Below, one piece after another: positions 2,972 to 32,398 of a stretch of DNA of 36,855 bases. Every line of letters starts with the position of its first letter. Position 1 is the first letter of the stretch. Under the pieces are notes generated by a model. The model saw nothing but the letters and a program-made list of their open reading frames with translations, did not search any database and was not told the origin of the DNA. Made by a program: the position numbers and the translations under genes. Origin of the DNA: Patescibacteria group bacterium (lineage in GTDB: Bacteria > Patescibacteriota > Gracilibacteria > UM-FILTER-43-11); NCBI GenBank assembly GCA_029260985.1, contig JAJDCE010000061.1, forward strand, positions 1-36,855, read 5' to 3'.

Positions 2972-3048
2972 TGGTGGGCGATGGAAGACTTGAACTTCCG
3001 ACCTCTACATTATCAGTGTAGCGCTCTAACCAGCTGAGCTAATCGCCC
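2972..3048 (-). tRNA. tRNA-Ile (anticodon GAU), CCA encoded
   Basis: Hand-folded cloverleaf: GGGCGAT/ATCGCCC acceptor, GCTC/GAGC D-stem, CTACA/TGTAG anticodon stem with loop CTGATAA, GGAAG/CTTCC T-stem with TTCAAGT loop, then ACCA. Total 77 nt. Confidence 0.93.
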
Positions 3049-3060
3049 TTTGATTTTAGA

Positions 3061-3093
3061 CTCTAACCATCTGCCTGAGGCAGATAATCGCCC
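3061..3093 (-). repeat. orphan tRNA 5'-fragment carrying the same hairpin-type D-arm as 2686-2717
   Basis: The reverse complement GGGCGATTATCTGCCTCAGGCAGATGGTTAGAG parallels the 5' part of the 2633-2717 copy. The hairpin 3069-3085 differs from 2693-2709 by a compensatory C-G to T-A pair change. Confidence 0.6.
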
Positions 3094-3142: not shown

Positions 3143-5350
3143 TTATTTTTCTTCAAAATCGATATCTGGATTACTCGGAATCGCTATTGAGCCTGTCATT
3201 TTACCCTTCTCAATAGAACCGACCACATTAAATGGGCCATCTGCAGAAACTTTCTGACCCGCCGCATCAATAGTTGCATCAAGACTTCCGCTCAAAACAA
3301 ATACCCCCGTGATCTGATCAATAGAACCCGTACAGCGGGTCGAATTCGCAGAACCGGAACCTGTTGAAGAATTACCGGCAAAAGTCGTAGTAAACGAAGT
3401 ATTCATAGCTGTGGTACAAGTAGCAGACCCATCTTCGTTAAAAGTGATCGCTATAGTCCCGGACGTTGTCTCAGTCACCGAAATTGTCATCCCTTGCTCA
3501 GAATGAGTTTGGGTATTAGGGCGGCTAAAGCTGGCTGTTTTTGTGCCGACAAAAACCGTGTTAACAATCTCTTCATCCTCTTCTTCAGCCTCCTCCTCAG
3601 ACGGTGTTAATCTGATCATTCCGTCCCAAGAACCTACAATATACTCATCAGTGTAATCTTTAATCGCGTAAGTAAACGGAGACGTCACCGATCCAGACTC
3701 ATAACCCTTGGCCGTCACCGAAATCGTAATATTAAGTGGCGTAGGTTCAATCGTTGGTTTTACCAAAAAAGTTCCATCATCAACCGTTCGGTCTGAACCT
3801 AAACTTTTCCCCCCACTGGTTTTGATAGTCACCACCGCATTTTCAATTGATTCCCCCTCAACAGCATCAATCACCTCCCCGGTAATATAGGCATCAGGAT
3901 CAAGCTCAAAATTGTAAGGAATGTCTAAATAATCCTTTCCGCCAACGGGCATTTCAAAAACATCCGCACCATTGGTTATTTGAATTTTTCCGGATGACAT
4001 GGAAATGTCGTAACTGGCGTCTTCAAAACCTTGGGCCTTAAAAGTAACCGTGTAAGCTCCTCCATTCTGAAAATAAACTTCGTAGGCCGCCCCCTTATTC
4101 CATTCCCCCCTAATATCTTCCTTGATACCTTTACTCTTTGCACTAATTGTTCCCACGCCAATCAGCGCCTTGGTAGCGCTATTTTTCAACGTTCCTTTTA
4201 CGCGAAAACCTTCACTTAAAAAACCGGGTAAATAATCAAATCCCTCTTCTTGGATTGTATCAAGGATCGCCCCCATTCCGCAGTTAAGGAGATCTCCTTT
4301 GCAAGGGCCAATTTCGGAATCAATAGTGGCAAATCGAGTTGCCAGCTGTGCGCAGCCTAAATAAGCAAGGGGAGATGAAGCTCCGCCTGTAAATAAAATA
4401 CTCCCTAGGCCAATACCGCATCCAATCACACTCATAGAAGTTCCAAAATCAGGCATTTCTTTCAAAAAACAATCAAATTCTTCATTTTTACAGAATTCAT
4501 CAACTGCCAAACCAATTCCCAACTTCAACAGTTTAACATCAGGAGGAAGAGCTGCGTCAAATGCGTCATATAAAGTTTCAGAAGTGATGCGATCTTCATC
4601 AATTGTTGAAGCATTAGCTGAAGGGAAAAACCAGTTATATATAACCGCCTGAAATTTAGAAGAATCTAGAGTTCTGGTTAAAGTTTCTTTTGTTCCATCA
4701 GGCTTTGTAATGGTTAAATCCACCGTCGTTTCAGTATAGTTACTAAAATTTACAATCGTTCCGTTAAAAGTAAATGTTCCCGGAAGTCCATAATCATTTA
4801 TTTTCATCAGCCCTTCTGTGCCATCATTACCTCTTATCACCACCGCATCAGGGTATTTTTTACCATCAACTGTTTTAGTCATAAACGCCATTCCCTCACG
4901 GTTTTCAGAAACAACTACCGAATGAACATTGCTATTTGGATCTGTATTTCTATGAATCACAGTTTTCCCAATTTCTGTCACAGGCTTCCCTACACCGCAC
5001 TTAAGTTTGTAAAACAATTCAGTCTGGCAGCGAATTCCATCCTTGCCATCGTTTATAAAACATACATCAAAAGCTTTCCCTTCAAACTCTTCCTGATGAA
5101 CAGTGCCCTTCTTCTCCTTACAATAATTAGCCCACTTTTGCTTATCTGGAAACCTGACTATATCTGACGCCTCTTTCGCAGGCGTTTTCATCACCCCTCC
5201 TTCACTCTTCTCAGCTTCTACCAGTTCTGTTTTTTCAAAGCGCTCAAGAATCTGATCAACCAAAGGATCAGAAGATGTTGAGTAATCATAAACCAAGTAG
5301 CTCCCTCCGATAAAAAGAAGGGCAAAGATGAGTTTAAATAGGTTTTTCAT
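3143..5350 (-). CDS. large membrane-anchored/secreted hypothetical protein with carboxypeptidase-regulatory-like (Ig/PEGA-type) beta domains
   Basis: 735 aa. N-terminal TM/signal anchor (LFKLIFALLFIGGSYLV), Cys-rich segments, and a GEVIDAVEGESIENAVVTIKT..DDGTFLV segment typical of CarboxypepD_reg-like folds. Confidence 0.75.
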   Translation of the reverse strand: MKNLFKLIFALLFIGGSYLVYDYSTSSDPLVDQILERFEKTELVEAEKSEGGVMKTPAKEASDIVRFPDKQKWANYCKEKKGTVHQEEFEGKAFDVCFINDGKDGIRCQTELFYKLKCGVGKPVTEIGKTVIHRNTDPNSNVHSVVVSENREGMAFMTKTVDGKKYPDAVVIRGNDGTEGLMKINDYGLPGTFTFNGTIVNFSNYTETTVDLTITKPDGTKETLTRTLDSSKFQAVIYNWFFPSANASTIDEDRITSETLYDAFDAALPPDVKLLKLGIGLAVDEFCKNEEFDCFLKEMPDFGTSMSVIGCGIGLGSILFTGGASSPLAYLGCAQLATRFATIDSEIGPCKGDLLNCGMGAILDTIQEEGFDYLPGFLSEGFRVKGTLKNSATKALIGVGTISAKSKGIKEDIRGEWNKGAAYEVYFQNGGAYTVTFKAQGFEDASYDISMSSGKIQITNGADVFEMPVGGKDYLDIPYNFELDPDAYITGEVIDAVEGESIENAVVTIKTSGGKSLGSDRTVDDGTFLVKPTIEPTPLNITISVTAKGYESGSVTSPFTYAIKDYTDEYIVGSWDGMIRLTPSEEEAEEEDEEIVNTVFVGTKTASFSRPNTQTHSEQGMTISVTETTSGTIAITFNEDGSATCTTAMNTSFTTTFAGNSSTGSGSANSTRCTGSIDQITGVFVLSGSLDATIDAAGQKVSADGPFNVVGSIEKGKMTGSIAIPSNPDIDFEEK

Positions 5351-6990: not shown

Positions 6991-7796
6991 CCCGCCATTC
7001 CATCTGCATAAGCCTGCATTTTGGGGAAAGCCCTCTCAACCAAATAACGAACCATTCTGCGCAAACGATTAGCATCGCAATTAAAACCGGTTTCGAATCC
7101 AAATTTCTTAAGCAAAGTGCTTATGGTAGCATCCTGAGCATCCTGAAATCTGAGTAAAATTGCCCTAATATACCCCCTTCTGTCGTCCAAATTATACAAA
7201 CGGGTATCAATCTGAGTTAACTTACCCTCTCTTGCAATAACATCACCTACCTCAACACCACATTTCGACATTTCTATTTTGGAATGTATATCGGCATCTG
7301 GGAGCTTTAGATTGCTAATGCTGGGATTCAAAGTTTTCTTTCTAGGGTTTAAAACAGCACCAAACTCACCCAATAACTGACCCCCTACAATATCCAAACC
7401 TCTGCTATCGGACTGTCTAATAACCTGACCAATGCTAAAAATATCAAGCAATTGCCGCCTCACCTCTTCAGAATGGAATAAATGAGCCACTCTCAAAGTC
7501 TCAGCATCTAGATAGCCCTGACGTAAATAATATTCTGCCACCTCATGATGAACTTTGCCATTTCTAACCAACGTCTCACCATGATTCTCAGTGGGAGTTA
7601 CTGTAAGACCATGCCGACACTGAGTTTCATAATCAAATTCAGCCGCTTCAGGGCGAGGATCCTGCCAAATTTTACCAAACCAATTTGGTATTTTATGAAC
7701 CTCCCCTCTTTCTTCATCTAGCCAAACACTATGTTCAGCACCGGATGTCTGACGACCTTTTAACCTGACTATATCTGGATTACTGGATTTATTCAT
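6987..7796 (-). CDS. hypothetical protein, translationally coupled to queG
   Basis: 269-aa ORF. Its ATG overlaps the queG stop (ATGA, 7793-7796). I recognise no family. Confidence 0.7.
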   Translation of the reverse strand: MNKSSNPDIVRLKGRQTSGAEHSVWLDEERGEVHKIPNWFGKIWQDPRPEAAEFDYETQCRHGLTVTPTENHGETLVRNGKVHHEVAEYYLRQGYLDAETLRVAHLFHSEEVRRQLLDIFSIGQVIRQSDSRGLDIVGGQLLGEFGAVLNPRKKTLNPSISNLKLPDADIHSKIEMSKCGVEVGDVIAREGKLTQIDTRLYNLDDRRGYIRAILLRFQDAQDATISTLLKKFGFETGFNCDANRLRRMVRYLVERAFPKMQAYADGMAG

Positions 7797-8872
7797 GAAC
7801 AGTTCAAAGATAATTGATCAATAGCCCAACGGGCGTGGTCTACAAGCATATCATCAGATTCTCGATCCACAAAATCTTGAAGTAATGGGGTTAAGCTGAC
7901 ATCTCCTGAATTCCCAGCCACAACGCAAGCATTTCGGAGAAGGCCTCTCCGCTTCGCGCGCATTAATGGAGTACCCGCAAACTTTTCCAAAAACTCCTCA
8001 TCCGTTTTGATAGATAAAAGTTCTTTCAAATCTAAAGAACTCCCAACTCCTGACTCCGGACTAAGAACTTTTATAGTGACTGTCTGATGATGAGCTCTGC
8101 CAACATTAAAAGGACAAACCTCTTGGCAGATATCGCACCCGAACAAACGATTGCCGATTTTAGACCGAAGCTCTACCGGAATCCCCTCTTTATTTTCAAT
8201 CGTTAAATAAGATATACACTTCCGCGCATCAATCTGACCAGGTTTCACGATAGCACCGGTAGGACACGCCATCTGACACTTTTGGCAGTCTCCGCAATTC
8301 GGAAAATGCCGTTTTTCAGTCGGCCTAAGTTCTAAATTTGTATAAAGCGACGCTATAAAAAAGAAACTCCCCTTCGAAGGATCAATCAAACAGGAATTTT
8401 TACCAAAAAAACCAAGCCCAGCTGTCTCCGCCAACACCCGATCCACCGTCGGCCCACTATCGACCGAAACATACGTTTCGATTTCAGATTTCACATTTCT
8501 GATTTCAGATTTCAGCCAATCAGATAATTCAATAAGTCTTTTTTTAAGAACTTTGTGATAATCCTTCCCTCTCGCATACCGAGAAACAACTCCACTATTT
8601 GAGCCACGCGACGAAGGAGCTGAGCCACAATTGGAATATATCGCCCCCAATACAATCACTGATTTAATATCAGCCAATTTGTTCTCAGGATGAAATCGAT
8701 CCTCCTTCATCCGCTCCAAATAGTCTAAATCAGCTGAGAATCCTCTCTTCATCCAATCATCAAAAACCGCTTCATGTTTCTTCAAATTCTTCCTAATTTC
8801 CTCAAGCGAAACTACGCCATGAGTAGACCATCCTTGCCCTTCGATAAATTGTTCTAATTTTTTCGGATTCAT
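7793..8872 (-). CDS. queG: epoxyqueuosine reductase (tRNA queuosine biosynthesis)
   Basis: Two 4Fe-4S ferredoxin motifs (CGDCQKCQMACPTGAI; CDICQEVCPFN), GLGFFGKNSCLI, and a HEAT-like C-terminus. Length is typical of QueG. Confidence 0.9.
   Translation of the reverse strand: MNPKKLEQFIEGQGWSTHGVVSLEEIRKNLKKHEAVFDDWMKRGFSADLDYLERMKEDRFHPENKLADIKSVIVLGAIYSNCGSAPSSRGSNSGVVSRYARGKDYHKVLKKRLIELSDWLKSEIRNVKSEIETYVSVDSGPTVDRVLAETAGLGFFGKNSCLIDPSKGSFFFIASLYTNLELRPTEKRHFPNCGDCQKCQMACPTGAIVKPGQIDARKCISYLTIENKEGIPVELRSKIGNRLFGCDICQEVCPFNVGRAHHQTVTIKVLSPESGVGSSLDLKELLSIKTDEEFLEKFAGTPLMRAKRRGLLRNACVVAGNSGDVSLTPLLQDFVDRESDDMLVDHARWAIDQLSLNCS
8474..8515. repeat. six tandem heptamers (ATTTCAG family) in frame inside queG
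   Basis: cgtttcg atttcag atttcac atttctg atttcag atttcag gives 42 nt, or 14 codons (KSEIRNVKSEIET), in a variable loop of QueG. Confidence 0.85.
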
Positions 8873-9866: not shown

Positions 9867-10406
9867 ATGAGTATGGAGTTAAGCCTATCAATGAAAAGGT
9901 TTCTGGAAAAGGCAAGAGCCTGGCTGCTTCAGGGGATCGATATGATCGACGATCTCCTGGGAGCTAACGAAGCTGCCGACGAAGAAGGTCAGGCTGCTGG
10001 GGATCCACCGTCCGAAGAGCCTGCTCTCGCAGCAGCATCTGAGGAGGCCACAGCACCCGCCGAAGAGCCTGCAGCGGAAGAACCTGCCGTTGAGGAAGCC
10101 GAAGCCGAGGGTGAAGCCGATGATGAAGGCAACACCGAGACCGATGGTGACGGTGAAAGCGACGACGCCGATGGCGACACCGCCGATGGCGACACCGCCG
10201 AGACCGATGAAGGCAAAGGCGGCGGCGAGGCAGAAGAGCCTGATGCCGAGGGCGACGGCGAAAAGTCCGACGACGCTGAGGCCGAAGCCAAAGATGGTGA
10301 AGGCGACAGCAGCAACGATGGTGACGGCGAAGCCGAAGCCGACGCTGCACCCGCCGAAGAAACTGCAGCCGAAAAGGCCGAAGCAGAGGCCGCAACCCCT
10401 GCCTAA
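9867..10406 (+). CDS. extremely acidic low-complexity (E/A/D/G-rich) protein, compositionally atypical
   Basis: 179-aa ORF preceded by AGGAGA 7 nt upstream of the ATG. Amphipathic N-terminus, then a long Glu/Asp/Ala/Gly tract with a 15-nt tandem duplication (gccgatggcgacacc x2). About 65% G+C with C-ending codons. Confidence 0.65.
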   Translation: MSMELSLSMKRFLEKARAWLLQGIDMIDDLLGANEAADEEGQAAGDPPSEEPALAAASEEATAPAEEPAAEEPAVEEAEAEGEADDEGNTETDGDGESDDADGDTADGDTAETDEGKGGGEAEEPDAEGDGEKSDDAEAEAKDGEGDSSNDGDGEAEADAAPAEETAAEKAEAEAATPA

Positions 10407-10477
10407 AAAACAGCGAAAAGGCGCAGGGTCAGCGAGCGAAGGGCGACTAGAACTTATTGGGTGCTCCGTGTAACAGC

Positions 10478-10688: not shown

Positions 10689-12152
<1,464 letters not shown>

Positions 12153-14800: not shown

Positions 14801-14829
14801 ATTATAATATTAATTAACTATATTGTCAA
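14801..14829 (-). promoter_or_regulatory. promoter TTGACA-N17-TATAAT (exact consensus)
   Basis: Reverse complement of 14824-14829 is TTGACA (overlapping the TGA stop of aroA-aroK) and of 14801-14806 is TATAAT. Confidence 0.65.
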
Positions 14830-16721
14830 CTAAAAACCCTCTCTAAGCTATCCCCCACCACCTTACCCGTCGTATTATCCCAAACATAGTCGGCATATCT
14901 AAGGTATAAATCACGTCGCTCCTGCCATATATCGTGAATTTCGGATATTGCCCCCTCACCCGTTAAACTAGGCCGTGTATTCGAATGTTTTTCAACACGT
15001 TCAGCCAAAACATTTGGATCAGCAAATATAAAAACATTCACTCCGTTTTTCTTCAAATTCTTCATATTTTCCTCATCCATCACAACCCCACCACCCGTAG
15101 CAATCACCAAGCCAGATTGATCAGCAAATTCCTGACACACCCGACTTTCTAATTTGCGAAAATGATCCCAACTTTTCTGCTCCACAATCTGATTAATAGA
15201 AAGTCCTGCCACCTTCTCAGTCTCATGATCCAGATCCACAAATGGTCGTTTAAGCAATTTAGCTATTTTCTTGCCGTGTCGCGTCTTTCCACTGCATCGC
15301 ATCCCCGTAAGTACCAAATTCTTATTTCCGAGCTTTATAGGCTTTGATAAATACATCCTCTCCAAGTCTTCCCAGAACTCTGGATAGGTTTTATCAGTAC
15401 ACCCAGGGTTTTCGATTCGGATTCCGGGTATTTTAGTCCCCACAACCGCAAAACACATTGCCATCCTGTGATCGTTATATGTATTAATCAAAACCTTCCC
15501 CTTGCCTTGAAGGCTGGATTGGCCAATCCAGCCTTCGGTACGAAGGGTATCGTTTGTTGTTTTCACCTTCACACCGATCTTCCCCAACTCTTTCTCCAAT
15601 GCGGCAAGTCGGTCGGTTTCCTTAATCCGTAAAGTTGATAAACCAGTAATCTTAATTTGACCTTTTATAAACGGAACCGTGCATGCCAATGTCATCGCAA
15701 CATCCGGCATATCTTCCATATCAATTTCGAGCTTTGAATTCAGATTTTTGAGATTTTTTAGAATAAAACCGTATCTCTCGTCACCTTGAATACTTTTTTT
15801 ATTCAACTTTTCAGTTTTAACTGAATTTAAAGCCAAATTCTCTTTATGAACAAGTTTTTTACTCAAACTTGGCGTCAAAAGGTTCGAAAATCCGACCTTT
15901 CCATCATGCAGATAAGCCATCGAAATCCAGTAACTGGACGCCGACGCATCACCTTCAATCCAATAATCACAAGCTTTGTAAGTTTGAGGTTTGATCTCAA
16001 AAGATCGGTAATTATTATTCTTAACCTTAACTCCAAAAGCCTTCATCACCTCAATAGTCGTATCAATATAGGGTTTACTCACCAATTCCCCTATCACCTC
16101 TATCTTAAGTGGTTTTGGCAGTAACGGCCCAAGCATTAGAAGTGCCGAGAAATACTGACTACTCTTATCCCCCTTCATCTGAACCGCAAGCTTAGTCCTT
16201 AGCCTGCCTGTCCGGTAGGCAGGTCCATAGTCCTTAGTCCTAATTATTTTAAGAGGTGGATAACCGGTTTTATTTAAATATTCAACCTGAACGCCAATCT
16301 GCCGTAAACCTTCCACCAAGTCCTTTATTGGTCGCTCCTGCATGCGCCTATCACCCGTAATGGTAGTTGTACCCTCCCTAATAGCCATAACGGCCGTTAA
16401 AAAGCGTGTAGCCGTCCCAGCATTATGCAGATCAAACATAAAATCCCCTTTCTCAAACCTTCCCCCACATCCTTCAATCCCTATTCCATTTCTTAATTCA
16501 CCTGTACTGAGCACGGTCGAAGTATAACTCTTAATTTTTAATTGCCGTAAGGCTTTCAGCATTACGACCGTATCATCCGATTCCAAAGCCCCATACAGCC
16601 CACTCTTCCCTTTCGCCAAAGCCGCACACAAAAAAGCACGATTGGTAATAGACTTGGATCCCGGCAGGGTAAGGAAAAAATCCAAGCTTTGCTTCAGTGG
16701 AATAACTTCTCTAAATTTCAT
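14826..16721 (-). CDS. aroA: bifunctional 3-phosphoshikimate 1-carboxyvinyltransferase (EPSP synthase) / shikimate kinase fusion
   Basis: N-terminal ~450 aa is class-I EPSPS-like (LPGSKSITNRA, SSQYFSALLM, LVSKPYIDTT, EGDASSASY, DHRMAM). The C-terminal ~170 aa has the shikimate-kinase P-loop GMRCSGKT plus a DLD motif. Confidence 0.88.
   Translation of the reverse strand: MKFREVIPLKQSLDFFLTLPGSKSITNRAFLCAALAKGKSGLYGALESDDTVVMLKALRQLKIKSYTSTVLSTGELRNGIGIEGCGGRFEKGDFMFDLHNAGTATRFLTAVMAIREGTTTITGDRRMQERPIKDLVEGLRQIGVQVEYLNKTGYPPLKIIRTKDYGPAYRTGRLRTKLAVQMKGDKSSQYFSALLMLGPLLPKPLKIEVIGELVSKPYIDTTIEVMKAFGVKVKNNNYRSFEIKPQTYKACDYWIEGDASASSYWISMAYLHDGKVGFSNLLTPSLSKKLVHKENLALNSVKTEKLNKKSIQGDERYGFILKNLKNLNSKLEIDMEDMPDVAMTLACTVPFIKGQIKITGLSTLRIKETDRLAALEKELGKIGVKVKTTNDTLRTEGWIGQSSLQGKGKVLINTYNDHRMAMCFAVVGTKIPGIRIENPGCTDKTYPEFWEDLERMYLSKPIKLGNKNLVLTGMRCSGKTRHGKKIAKLLKRPFVDLDHETEKVAGLSINQIVEQKSWDHFRKLESRVCQEFADQSGLVIATGGGVVMDEENMKNLKKNGVNVFIFADPNVLAERVEKHSNTRPSLTGEGAISEIHDIWQERRDLYLRYADYVWDNTTGKVVGDSLERVFS
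16191..16245. repeat. TAGTCCT-heptamer / GC-hairpin element inserted in frame in aroA
   Basis: cttagtcct tagcctg-cctgcc tgtccggta ggcagg-tcca tagtcct tagtcct. Encodes RTKDYGPAYRTGRLRTK in a loop ~12 aa longer than the corresponding E. coli AroA loop as I recall it. Confidence 0.8.
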
Positions 16722-19108: not shown

Positions 19109-19196
19109 TTTATTTTATTTTAAGTCGAAAATATTTTATCATAATACTAGACTTTTCAACAAGCTTAGTCCGCCTGCACTGAGCGCAACCGAAGTA

Positions 19197-19245
19197 TAGT
19201 CCCTAGTCCCTAGTCCCTAGTCCTTAGTCCTTAGTCCTTAGTCCC
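19197..19245. repeat. seven perfect-register tandem heptamers (TAGTCCC x3, TAGTCCT x3, TAGTCCC)
   Basis: Read directly. The array ends at the base before the TTG start at 19246. TAG/TAA appear in all frames on both strands. Confidence 0.95.
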
Positions 19246-20085
19246 TTGCTAATAGATTACCACCTACACAATCACTTCTCCCCAGACAGCGAAACTGACA
19301 CTACGCAACTGATTGAACATATGAGAGATTTGGGGATCAATCATCTCTGTATCACCAATCACGGGGAGTTTTTTATTCACGAAGAGGAAATTGTTGGAGT
19401 GTTTGAATATGCCGAAGCCCACAACCGCTTTCAGAAAGACAAAAATGAACTCGATGAGATAAGATCGAAATATCCTGATATGGACATCCGTTTTGGCATT
19501 GAGCTCCAATATCAGCCAGAATGTCACGACGATATAAAAAAATTGATGAACGAACTTCCCTTTGATTTTGCCCTGGGCTCCGTCCACTTCATCGACAATA
19601 TCATTATTTCAGGAGGAAAAAACGCCGGCCAGGCTTTTGAGAAAATGGATGAAGAAACCGCCTACAATAAATACTTCAACTCCATGCTCGAATGGGTTGA
19701 GTTAGCCTATTTTGATGTCGTCGCCCATTTCGATATCATCAAAAAGTTCGGCGTAAATTACTACGGGCCCTTTCAGCCCGAAAAATACAAAACAATCATC
19801 CAAAAGATCATCCAAAGCATGAAGGAAAAAGGAATTGGAATGGAACTGAATGCTGCCACTTTGCACAAACGCTGCAACGAAATAATGCCCCATCCTCAAA
19901 TCCTAAAATGGTGCCTGGAAGCTGGAATCGAAACCTTTACCCTCGGCACCGATGCCCATAATCTCGAAACCGCCGGAAAACTGATCCCCGAAGCCCTACA
20001 AATAGCCAAAGACGTGGGTATCACACATCTTTCCACCTTTAAGAATCGTCAACCAGTACGACATGAAATCCAAAGCGCAGAGTAG
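19246..20085 (+). CDS. PHP-domain phosphoesterase (HisJ-family histidinol-phosphatase-like)
   Basis: N-terminal DYHLHNHFSPDS metal-binding motif, with later GSVHF and GTDAHN motifs. TTG is the only plausible start upstream of DYHLH (in-frame TAG at 19225). Confidence 0.8.
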   Translation: MLIDYHLHNHFSPDSETDTTQLIEHMRDLGINHLCITNHGEFFIHEEEIVGVFEYAEAHNRFQKDKNELDEIRSKYPDMDIRFGIELQYQPECHDDIKKLMNELPFDFALGSVHFIDNIIISGGKNAGQAFEKMDEETAYNKYFNSMLEWVELAYFDVVAHFDIIKKFGVNYYGPFQPEKYKTIIQKIIQSMKEKGIGMELNAATLHKRCNEIMPHPQILKWCLEAGIETFTLGTDAHNLETAGKLIPEALQIAKDVGITHLSTFKNRQPVRHEIQSAE

Positions 20086-32320: not shown

Positions 32321-32398
32321 GAACTAAGGGCTAGGGATTAAGGACTAAGTTGCATTTTTTTAATAAGACCTAGTCCCTAGTCCTTAGTCCCTAGTCCC
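32321..32398. repeat. long imperfect hairpin built from inverted TAGTCCY heptamer arrays
   Basis: The left arm 32321-32349 (..ctaagggctagggattaaggactaag) is the inverted complement of the right arm 32371-32398 (tagtccc tagtcct tagtccc tagtccc). About 27 paired positions counting G-U, with a 21-nt loop. Confidence 0.85.

Follow-up and report, generated by a model that had tools for sequence, protein, structure and literature searches.

The window analysed here, a stretch of 36.9 kb, encodes on its minus strand an aroA–aroK fusion gene (EPSP synthase plus shikimate kinase; positions 14826–16721, an ORF of 631 aa), and this gene is the host of an in-frame insert. The Pfam domains EPSP_synthase and SKI were found at residues 17–453 (E 7.5e-94) and 475–618, respectively, and the comparison with the PDB returned EPSP synthases at E 1.8e-73. 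The fusion has more than 100 orthologs, and those with a named source belong to Patescibacteria or Peregrinibacteria. A first-pass annotation of this DNA had reported a repeat sequence in frame in the EPSP-synthase half of aroA; the sequence is indeed present at the coordinates given there, and it lies in frame.

The whole insert lies at 16191–16241 on the minus strand and consists of a heptamer array split by a 21-nt hairpin. The codons on the coding strand are ATT AGG ACT AAG GAC TAT GGA CCT GCC TAC CGG ACA GGC AGG CTA AGG ACT AAG CTT, which are translated into I RTKDYGPAYRTGRLRTK L, the 17 residues of RTKDYGPAYRTGRLRTK being residues 161–177 of the protein. The segment string printed in the first-pass annotation carries four letters too many (a surplus 'cctg'), reading 'ttagcctg CCTGCC' for the actual 'ttag CCTGCC', and the 59 nt as they stand in the DNA end in 'aatt'. 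The span from YPPL to SSQ comprises 36 aa in the window AroA versus 24 aa in that of E. coli, in agreement with the earlier estimate of a loop about 12 aa longer. The predicted fold of 16191–16241 has an energy of -20.4 kcal/mol (z -3.4).

The insert is made of two nested repeats and is not a single element. The first of them is an array of four units, AGGACTA AGGACTA TGGACTA AGGACTA on the coding strand. Units 1 and 2 (AGGACTA AGGACTA) occupy 16228–16241 and the 5' part of the split unit 3 (TGGA) occupies 16224–16227, while the 3' part of this unit (CTA), unit 4 (AGGACTA), and a partial unit (AG) are found at 16191–16202, all on the minus strand. The plus-strand A at 16227 is the T that makes the sole unit junction read in the aroA frame GAC TAT (Tyr), as had been read correctly in the first pass. 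With the usual A, this junction codon would be TAA, and with the G of the intergenic arrays, it would be TAG. Once an array has four or more perfect AGGACTA units, every forward frame contains a TAA, and three such units are enough to place TAG in every reverse frame; an array can thus persist in coding DNA only if the unit at its in-frame junction is a variant. A T-variant unit was found exactly at this junction in four independent arrays, namely in the window, L001, loop 3 of L002 (TGGACTA in these two orthologs as well), and loop 1 of L127 (TGAATTA). Meanwhile, TGGACTA was seen in 0 of the 11 intergenic units of the window. The coding arrays avoid stops at the in-frame junction.

The second repeat, CCTGCCTACCGGACAGGCAGG (16203–16223, minus strand), is a palindromic mini-element of 21 nt nested in unit 3. 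It has a 7-bp stem (CCTGCCT/AGGCAGG), a 7-nt loop, and a predicted fold of -10.6 kcal/mol (z -3.2). Its insertion point lies between GGA and CTA of unit 3 and, as 21 equals 3 × 7, the insertion leaves the reading frame as well as the phase of the heptamers unchanged. The window without 16203–16223 reads AGGACTA AGGACTA TGGACTA AGGACTA AG, which is exactly the sequence of the same loop in the ortholog P0005 (locus L001). The DNA identity between the window aroA and L001 is 66.8% overall and 31/31 across the array, with a single clean 21-nt gap. The P0005 array lacking the 21-mer therefore looks like the empty site of the hairpin.

The AGGACTA/GGGACTA unit forms TAGTCCY arrays at three separate sites within 37 kb. 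TAGTCCY was counted 22 times in the window against an expectation of 5.7 ± 2.5, and no shuffle reached 22. On the plus strand, the intergenic region 19166–19245 contains a lone TAGTCC unit, a 25-nt spacer (19172–19196), and seven TAGTCCY units (19197–19245) that abut the TTG start of a PHP-domain gene. The spacer resembles the aroA hairpin only in GCCTGC(A)CTG, folds weakly, and has no exact match in viral contigs. The intergenic region 32323–32398, which is not assigned to a strand, comprises a degenerate inverted heptamer array (32323–32350), a 20-nt spacer, and four TAGTCCY units (32369–32398), and forms a long hairpin with a predicted fold of -35.2 kcal/mol (z -5.3). The queG gene of the window holds one more coding period-7 array. 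Across 94.6 kb of related DNA, we counted 18 period-7 arrays of at least three units, while periods 5, 6, and 8–12 gave 0–2 and shuffles gave 0. Twelve of 27 period-7 arrays lie inside long ORFs and 15 outside; since the DNA is mostly coding, this indicates intergenic enrichment. The scan of genome contigs with GGACTANGGACTANGGACTA gave at least 120 matches, including Acidobacteriaceae, Planctomycetes, cyanobacteria, Bacteroidales, and others, with no Peregrinibacteria among the matches listed. Matches in so many groups indicate that the heptamer unit is not lineage-specific.

The first-pass annotation had taken the aroA insert and the sequence near 19160 for copies of a single dispersed element with caagcttagtcc as its boundary. 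The shared 12-mer CAAGCTTAGTCC indeed has no occurrences other than those at 16187 and 19160 (chance expectation about 0.09; 1 of 100 shuffles reached two). The 'gcctgc' said to follow both copies does so directly at 19172, but three bases (tta) intervene at 16199–16201. Eight nucleotides of the 12-mer (CTTAGTCC) are heptamer array and only CAAG (CTTG on the coding strand) is outside it; the otherwise identical P0005 array is followed by CAAAAA rather than CTTG. Since the part beyond the heptamer amounts to just 4 nt, which P0005 lacks, the 'CAAGCT' boundary is suggestive at best, and the caagcttagtcc boundary as proposed is weak. Related copies do exist elsewhere, as had been proposed: heptamer arrays in the window and the 21-mer in other metagenome and viral contigs. 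However, these are two nested entities with separate distributions, because P0005 has the same-loop array without the hairpin and because the 21-mer sits at many unrelated sites without TAGTCC units. The earlier interpretation as a whole is thus partly supported.

CCTGCCTACCGGACAGGCAGG belongs to a widespread, self-nesting family with the consensus CCTGCCTGCCGGCAGGCAGG, whose members are 20–21 nt long with stems of 7–8 bp. The CCTGCCTGCCGGCAGGCAGG pattern was found in at least 120 metagenome stretches. In viral contigs it matched 35 stretches, versus 0 and 0 for two composition-matched control palindromes. Four metagenome loci and a further 18 sites in viral contigs carry the exact CCTGCCTACCGGACAGGCAGG, with six of the viral-contig sites falling in one 28.8-kb contig; the window contained no second copy. 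The hosts are Patescibacteria/Peregrinibacteria and one Acidoferrales-like contig, and the palindrome is identical in contigs with a GC content of 0.30 to 0.71. A search of 877 kb flanking the heptamer arrays in named genomes, Nostoc and Anabaena among them, detected no copy. The palindrome occurs in intergenic DNA, in any reading frame, and in the variable arm of a tRNA-Met. In-frame copies lie in the genes for PheS, Mur ligases, UvrC, GH115, and DinB, the PheS copy accounting for six extra residues compared with PDB 4p71. Across its coding copies, the element is read, depending on the frame, as PAYRTGR, LPAGRQ, CLPAGR, or PACRQAG.

The palindrome is nested in itself in L286 (two cases), L292, L188, and L195, and it is embedded in heptamer arrays in the window, in loop 1 of L125, and in the N-terminal loop of L127. 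Heptamer-periodic flanks were seen at 11 of 86 sites versus 2% in the controls. The strict test, in which the removal of the palindrome should restore the heptamer phase, had two qualifying sites only and a mixed outcome; the evidence used here is that of the individually inspected cases. In L268, the 20-mer is placed at the apex of a REP-like hairpin, and filled and empty copies of a REP-like hairpin within one contig show a clean 20-nt difference. A rule that the palindrome always occupies the apex of a longer hairpin was rejected, since the in-register complementarity of the flanks was 3.59 of 14 versus 3.61 in the controls; the apex position holds for some copies only. MITEs have terminal inverted repeats and a target-site duplication and are roughly 50–500 bp long. 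This class fails for a palindrome of 20–21 nt with no target-site duplication in either of the two filled/empty comparisons. No transposase, reverse transcriptase, or RAYT-like gene was found in the window.

The aroA loop itself is a repeat hot spot among the nine orthologs read at the DNA level, seven of which have period-7 arrays there. Six different units were distinguished: AGGACTA, ACTCGAA-like, xAGATTC, AGGACTC, AGAATTA, and AATCAGC. P0002, the sister of P0001, carries another unit in this position, whereas the identical array is found in P0005, which is more distant; simple vertical inheritance of the array is not easily reconciled with this pattern. The loop contains a homologous 21-mer in L125, a compound palindrome of roughly 60 nt in L298, and a hairpin with an 8-bp stem in L299. 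The in-frame hairpin of L126 has a predicted fold of -56 kcal/mol, and in loop 3 of L126, a stop-avoiding variant in one arm is mirrored in the other arm, which keeps the stem intact. In loop 3 of L125, the palindromic mini-element is split by an additional 28-nt insert; a search of viral contigs for the 28-nt palindrome of aroA loop 3 gave no exact match. Wherever ortholog aroA arrays are present, all of them are in frame, and inserts of the same kind occur in independent assemblies from other samples.

At the protein level, the alignment of 40 AroA orthologs showed that the insert loop is hypervariable in both length and sequence and that the insert is not conserved as protein. This supports the initial reading of the insert as in-frame repeat DNA; the loop that holds it is a surface loop of the EPSP synthase. 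The AlphaFold model gave a pLDDT below 50 at residues 167–174, between the strands 157–161 and 178–183, and thus places the insert in a low-confidence loop at the tip of a predicted beta-hairpin. The 17-residue extension is probably disordered. The read-level material consisted of Logan contigs at 2–4x from three biofilm metagenome runs. Contigs from two of the runs covered the insert with zero differences, indicating that it is real and not an assembly error, and contigs matched to the 71-nt insert alone came from the home locus only. No aroA allele variants with or without the insert were seen in these 2–4x contigs.

The pairing of a small hairpin with heptamer arrays resembles the small dispersed repeats (SDR1–8) that Elhai et al. 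reportedly described in 2008 in Nostoc punctiforme and its relatives. The SDRs are said to be 21–27 nt long with a hairpin, to be dispersed, often inside tandem heptameric repeats, and to nest in themselves or in other small palindromes. They are not known to encode an enzyme, and they reportedly are confined to one cyanobacterial subgroup, the heterocystous one. Like the SDRs, the CCTGCCTGCCGGCAGGCAGG family has 20–21-nt hairpin members in many dispersed copies with unrelated flanks, is embedded in heptameric arrays, and nests in its own copies. Unlike them, it has many in-frame copies in essential genes and its hosts are Peregrinibacteria-like (CPR) and Acidoferrales-like; the likeness to SDR1–8 drawn here concerns their description.

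Several other systems share part of these features. In the summary given in PMC4692102 (Mrazek 2007, Mazel 1990), the STRR/heptanucleotide SSRs of cyanobacteria and Xanthomonas are characterised by a period-7 excess, a mostly intergenic location, and variation between relatives, and sometimes form inverted pairs able to make stem-loops. The window arrays agree with this description in having at least three head-to-tail units, a specific period-7 excess, and a unit present at several loci; they differ in being also in frame in conserved enzymes (aroA, queG), in their stop-removing variant units, and in belonging to another phylum. Rickettsia palindromic elements, as outlined in PMC10969869 (Ogata 2000, 2002), lie in frame in unrelated housekeeping genes at fold-compatible positions, measure about 100–150 bp, and are found in Rickettsia only. 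The tolerated in-frame insertion in aroA, PheS, Mur ligases, UvrC, DinB, and GH115 is common to both, whereas the CCTGCCTGCCGGCAGGCAGG family is 20–21 nt long, has no conserved peptide (all frames are used), occurs in other phyla, and is microsatellite-nested in aroA. The within-ORF repeats of Borgs are said to have unit lengths divisible by 3, unlike the 7-nt aroA-type units, of which only certain lengths and variant units are viable. According to PMC9879509, Borg tandem repeats evolve fast and add disordered segments to proteins, and the aroA-type repeats are likewise fast-evolving tandem DNA that adds such segments. REP/REPIN sequences are short, abundant extragenic palindromes, which typically show a conserved 5' tetranucleotide and a link to a RAYT gene (PMC3116915, which also cites Elhai et al. 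2008, Genome Res 18:1484). The CCTGCCTGCCGGCAGGCAGG palindrome is also short and abundant and occurs within the REP-like hairpin apex of L268; however, many of its copies are intragenic, no conserved 5' tetranucleotide was seen, and the window contains no RAYT gene.

We consider it probable that the aroA insert is a composite of a heptamer microsatellite and a 21-nt palindrome, both of them translated as part of a permissive EPSP-synthase surface loop that tolerates them. The ([A/T]GGACTA)4 microsatellite would be part of the period-7 population that, between genes and within a few protein loops, pervades Peregrinibacteria-like genomes, and a palindrome of the CCTGCCTGCCGGCAGGCAGG family would have been inserted between GGA and CTA of its third unit. 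The arrays would grow by replication slippage and perhaps also by exchange between arrays. The palindrome may be moved in trans by an activity favouring single-stranded loops or slipped repeats; we infer this movement from its distribution and the two filled/empty comparisons. For EPSP synthase, the insert would be a neutral passenger, and the enzyme most likely works normally with it.

An unlikely alternative is that the array and the hairpin were both born in place by slippage or template switching, with nothing mobile or dispersed. Template switching in quasi-palindromes would produce mirrored variants such as the one in L126 loop 3, and the six units at one loop would reflect repeated local birth or turnover. 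The over-representation of heptamer repeats in many bacteria has also been attributed to polymerase slippage (PMC4692102). For the hairpin, this origin is already largely refuted by the exact 21-mer at no fewer than 22 unrelated sites with unrelated flanks, by the 20-mer in well over 100 stretches versus 0 for the two matched control palindromes, and by the clean filled/empty pairs; the presence of the AGGACTA/GGGACTA unit at three sites within 37 kb argues in the same direction. We regard it as quite improbable that the DNA or RNA structure itself is functional, be it a ribosome-slowing mRNA hairpin, a protein or methyltransferase site (core GCCGGC/CCGG), or an uptake-signal-like motif under non-transposition drive. 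The stable folds of the window and of L126, the compensatory mirrored variant that preserves the L126 stem, and the identity of the palindrome across the whole range of contig GC are consistent with such a function. However, the motif arrives as a discrete length-changing insertion and not via point changes, its copies lie in any reading frame, between genes, within a tRNA arm, and inside one another, and orthologs manage without it.

A change of one unit in a tract that is not a multiple of 3 is a frameshift, and the locus could in principle switch aroA–aroK by slippage, much as hmw1A of Haemophilus influenzae varies in phase through heptanucleotide tracts (PMC8262952, PMC12721329). Such a contingency locus is very unlikely here, given that the aroA tract is short and imperfect, is broken up by the hairpin, lies in the middle of a housekeeping gene, agrees with the window in the insert-covering run contigs (2–4x), and has only in-frame counterparts among the orthologs. 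Finally, the insert keeps the frame and contains no stop codon, as a conserved functional peptide loop of an EPSPS subfamily would be, and an assembly artefact might be invoked instead, but this pair of readings is hardly credible. The peptide loop is already refuted by the hypervariability among the 40 orthologs, by the low pLDDT, and by the DNA-level repeat structure that accounts for the peptide, and the artefact by the exact match of contigs from two runs and the same kind of insert in independently assembled samples. The CRISPR repeat, MITE, and intein readings of the insert were excluded by size and architecture.

The composite of microsatellite and palindrome in aroA is apparently an undescribed example of coding sequence colonised by very small repeats; our literature search found neither the palindrome in such a context nor such inserts in CPR. 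More tentatively, and with more doubt than confidence, we suggest that CCTGCCTGCCGGCAGGCAGG and its 21-nt variants may be undescribed, currently active insertional elements, the smallest known, crossing phyla (CPR, Acidobacteriota-like and phage-like contigs). They would target single-stranded loops (hairpin apexes, tRNA arms, their own loop, and slipped heptamer arrays), share machinery with the period-7 arrays, and together with these remodel the surface loops of essential proteins in small-genome bacteria.

The combination of a heptamer array and a hairpin nested in it now extends beyond cyanobacteria, and the filled/empty pairs, the self-nesting cases, and the defined consensus make the movement of such tiny elements testable. 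A practical consequence for CPR genomes is that repeat inserts inflate and distort gene calls as well as protein alignments, and they account for odd recurring peptides in CPR proteins, such as GLRTQDS, RTKDYGL, and LPAGRQ. Essential enzymes of uncultivated bacteria with reduced genomes carry translated repeat DNA, and surface loops can therefore evolve by the insertion of microsatellites or 20-nt palindromes, beyond point mutation.

The insert (16191-16241, minus strand) lies in an aroA-aroK fusion gene (14826..16721, minus strand) encoding a protein of 631 aa, in which an EPSP synthase domain (Pfam PF00275) covers residues 17-453 and a shikimate kinase domain (PF01202) residues 475-618. The closest solved structures to the fusion protein are E. 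coli-type EPSP synthases (E 1.8e-73). The aroA feature is real: the repeat segment reported in the first-pass annotation was found there as described, except that its segmented string contained four letters (cctg) too many. On the coding strand the insert reads ATT AGG ACT AAG GAC TAT GGA CCT GCC TAC CGG ACA GGC AGG CTA AGG ACT AAG CTT, and the resulting peptide is I-RTKDYGPAYRTGRLRTK-L. The YPPL-to-SSQ interval spans 36 residues here versus 24 in E. coli AroA (HMMER alignment), which agrees with the proposed extension of the loop by about 12 aa. The 12-mer CAAGCTTAGTCC, said to be shared by two sites, is present in the window only at 16187 and 19160; the hexamer gcctgc, said to follow both copies, does occur in aroA, but three bases intervene there. 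The earlier interpretation of the element was partly right.

Written in heptamers, the coding strand of the insert is AGGACTA AGGACTA TGGA-CCTGCCTACCGGACAGGCAGG-CTA AGGACTA AG. A hairpin is nested in the array: the 21 nt CCTGCCTACCGGACAGGCAGG (16203-16223) fold into a 7-bp stem capped by a loop of 7 nt (-10.6 kcal/mol, z -3.2), and without them the insert is a clean array of four heptamer units. Since 7 and 3 have no common factor, four or more perfect AGGACTA units bring TAA into all three forward frames, and with the complementary TAGTCCT, three units are enough to place TAG in every reverse frame. A coding array therefore requires a variant unit at every in-frame junction. As the first-pass annotation had noticed, the stop is avoided in the aroA frame by the variant unit TGGA.., which yields TAT. 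At the same position, the intergenic arrays of the window contain A or G only (C or T on the plus strand), either of which would give a stop codon at the in-frame junction.

More than 100 orthologs of the fusion protein were found, and those with a named source belong to Patescibacteria or Peregrinibacteria. The alignment of 40 of them showed that loop 1, the EPSP-synthase loop with the insert, and three other loops are highly variable in length. The DNA of nine orthologs was read. Loop 1 of P0005 (locus L001) reads AGGACTA AGGACTA TGGACTA AGGACTA AG and equals the window array without the 21-mer; the two genes share 66.8% DNA identity overall, and the array matches at 31/31 positions with one clean 21-nt gap. 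P0005 is the empty site for the 21-mer. In a distance tree, the nearest relative of the window protein (P0001) was P0002 in 98 of 100 resamplings and P0005 was placed elsewhere, so simple descent would not easily explain the array common to the window gene and P0005. Loop 1 is built from ACTCGAA-like units in P0029, xAGATTC units in P0002 and AGGACTC units in P0035, while in P0008 it consists of AGAATTA units and one TGAATTA unit, again giving TAT instead of TAA. In P0039, AATCAGC units surround CCTTACCTACCGGCAGGCAGG, a homolog of the window hairpin, and P0010 has a hairpin with an 8-bp stem. P0025 (L298, about 3450-3520) carries an in-frame compound palindrome of ~60 nt encoding RRRESSLDPRVKPEDD, a peptide that is probably also found in hypothetical proteins from several bacteria with reduced genomes.

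Repeat DNA was also present in the other loops. Loop 3 of P0029 contains three AGGACTA units and TGGACTA, and that of P0035 (L126, 11101-11170) an in-frame inverted pair, (AGGACTC)4-spacer-(GAGTCCT)3, with a fold of -56 kcal/mol. There, one arm has a unit that removes an in-frame TGA, and the opposite arm shows the matching silent change (AGGACAC opposite GTGTCCT). This mirroring may be due to selection for the stem, or one arm may have been copied from its partner. The N-terminal loop of P0008 reads CTCGAAA TCCGAAA CCTGCCTGACCGGCAGGCAGG CCCGAAA CTCGAAA. In the window gene itself, loop 3 holds a perfect in-frame 28-nt palindrome (15509-15536, residues about 396-405; GAAGGCTGGATTGG/CCAATCCAGCCTTC), which had no exact match in viral contigs; its outer stem is common to P0002, where the apex is different. 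Loop 2 (about 15786-15880, residues about 281-310) holds an insert of ~24 aa, TPSLSKKLVHKENLALNSVKTEKLNKK, with three 7-bp mini-hairpins, which is common to P0002, P0003, P0004, P0013, and P0018 and is missing from their close relatives.

The AlphaFold model built from the 40-sequence alignment had a mean pLDDT of 86.7. Residues 167-174 of the insert scored below 50, the lowest of their region, and the insert was placed between strands 157-161 and 178-183, with the SSQ motif (187-189) at the start of the next helix. E. coli EPSPS binds its substrate through S169-S170-Q171, which lie at the N-terminal end of a helix and face the cleft; therefore, the hairpin tip bearing the insert should be directed away from the active site. 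The other low-confidence loops, 298-305 and 401-403 (pLDDT <50 at 401-403), correspond to the 24-aa insert of loop 2 and the 28-nt palindrome of loop 3.

The heptamers are not confined to aroA. The window contains 22 copies of TAGTCCY versus 5.7 +/- 2.5 expected, with arrays outside aroA at 19197-19245 and 32369-32398. Period 7 is in excess: the window and related loci (94.6 kb) contained 18 period-7 arrays of at least three units, versus 0-2 arrays for periods 5, 6, and 8-12 and none in shuffled sequence. At a slightly lower cut-off, 12 of 27 period-7 arrays lay inside long ORFs. One of them, in queG (epoxyqueuosine reductase; 7793-8872, minus strand), consists of five in-frame CTGAAAT units (8476-8515) encoding LKSEIRNVKSEIE; in the L126 ortholog the same loop has a period-7 array built from another unit, and in the L127 ortholog it is shorter. 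Among the matches listed (L004-L123), GGACTAN arrays were also found in Acidobacteriaceae, Planctomycetes, cyanobacteria, Bacteroidales, and Gemmatimonadota, often as inverted pairs with a short spacer and with arrays of related units nearby. The excess of bacterial heptameric repeats, their mainly intergenic location and their inverted pairs are all already known, their function is not (PMC4692102). In the window, inverted heptamer arrays with a 20-nt spacer (32323-32398) form a hairpin (-35 kcal/mol, z -5.3) between a small ORF and an HflX-like GTPase gene. The seven-unit TAGTCCY array at 19197-19246 runs up to the TTG start of a PHP-domain gene and thus leaves no space for its ribosome-binding site; in L002, no array was present in the syntenic region between the genes.

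Other features of the window include tRNA-Ile(GAT) (2972-3048, minus strand) with a partial second copy 339 nt away (61 nt, 98% identical; 2633-2715 and 2972-3091), which may represent the remains of a tandem duplication or a former attachment site. The 16S rRNA gene (10689-12152) is solitary, as the window contains no 23S gene; an acidic ORF of low complexity and 12-nt periodicity (9867-10406) flanks it.

A pattern covering the hairpin variants of the aroA orthologs was used for scanning metagenomes and matched at least 120 stretches. The 86 full-flank sites among the matches listed comprised 54 perfect 20-mers CCTGCCTGCCGGCAGGCAGG, 17 CCTGCCTACCGGCAGGCAGG, and four exact window 21-mers; the median GC of the listed loci was 0.43 (5-95% range 0.33-0.63). 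In viral contigs, the 20-mer occurred in 35 stretches versus 0 for each of two control palindromes of the same composition, and the exact 21-mer had 18 further sites, six of them in a single 28.8-kb contig. The palindrome occurs once in the window and was not found in the 877 kb surrounding heptamer arrays of named genomes. The flanks of its sites are unrelated to one another, and they were heptamer-periodic at 11 of 86 sites versus 2% of random positions in the same loci. The palindrome is dispersed and self-nesting across the family, being nested in itself at differing points in L286 (twice), L292, L188, and L195.

Contig L268 is full of REP-like hairpins (545-600, 2499-2549, 4198-4248, 9926-9976, 10383-10460). 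The palindrome sits in the loop of one of them, and an empty copy is present in the same contig (filled ..GCGGTTTTTG-[20 nt]-CGAGGGTGGG.. versus empty ..GCGGTTTTTGCAAGGGTGGG..); relative to the empty copies, the stem of the filled copy has a compensatory change from T-A to C-G. Two filled/empty comparisons show that the palindrome inserts as a discrete unit. Since the named relatives of the large ORF of L268 are Acidoferrales, the family spans at least two phyla. In L272 (2239-2330), the variable arm of a predicted tRNA-Met consists of the palindrome, with the same context in L249 (8616), and in L279 (515) the palindrome breaks a D-loop-like tRNA sequence, which ARAGORN no longer recognises. 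In-frame copies were found in PheS (six residues more than PDB 4p71), two Mur ligases, UvrC, a GH115 hydrolase, DinB, and an MmeI-like methylase.

The small dispersed repeats of Nostoc are reportedly hairpins of 21-27 nt that lie within heptamer repeats and nest in themselves. By that description, they are the closest likeness in hairpin size, embedding in heptamer arrays and self-nesting, but the hosts differ. Rickettsia palindromic elements (PMC10969869) are likewise translated in frame in housekeeping genes, whereas the palindrome here is about six times smaller. The palindrome lacks the defining characters of a MITE, and no REP/RAYT features were found with it. No account of the palindrome, nor of comparable inserts in the genomes of CPR bacteria, was found in the searchable literature. 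The read data, which were thin, gave no sign of phase variation of the insert.

The heptamer arrays would grow by slippage, and the finding of identical units at separate sites, and in both P0001 and P0005, suggests that arrays exchange sequence. The palindrome would be mobilised in trans, with single-stranded loops or slipped repeats as probable preferred targets; no candidate mobilising enzyme was found in the window. Selection would then retain only stop-free inserts with a length that is a multiple of three, in permissive loops.
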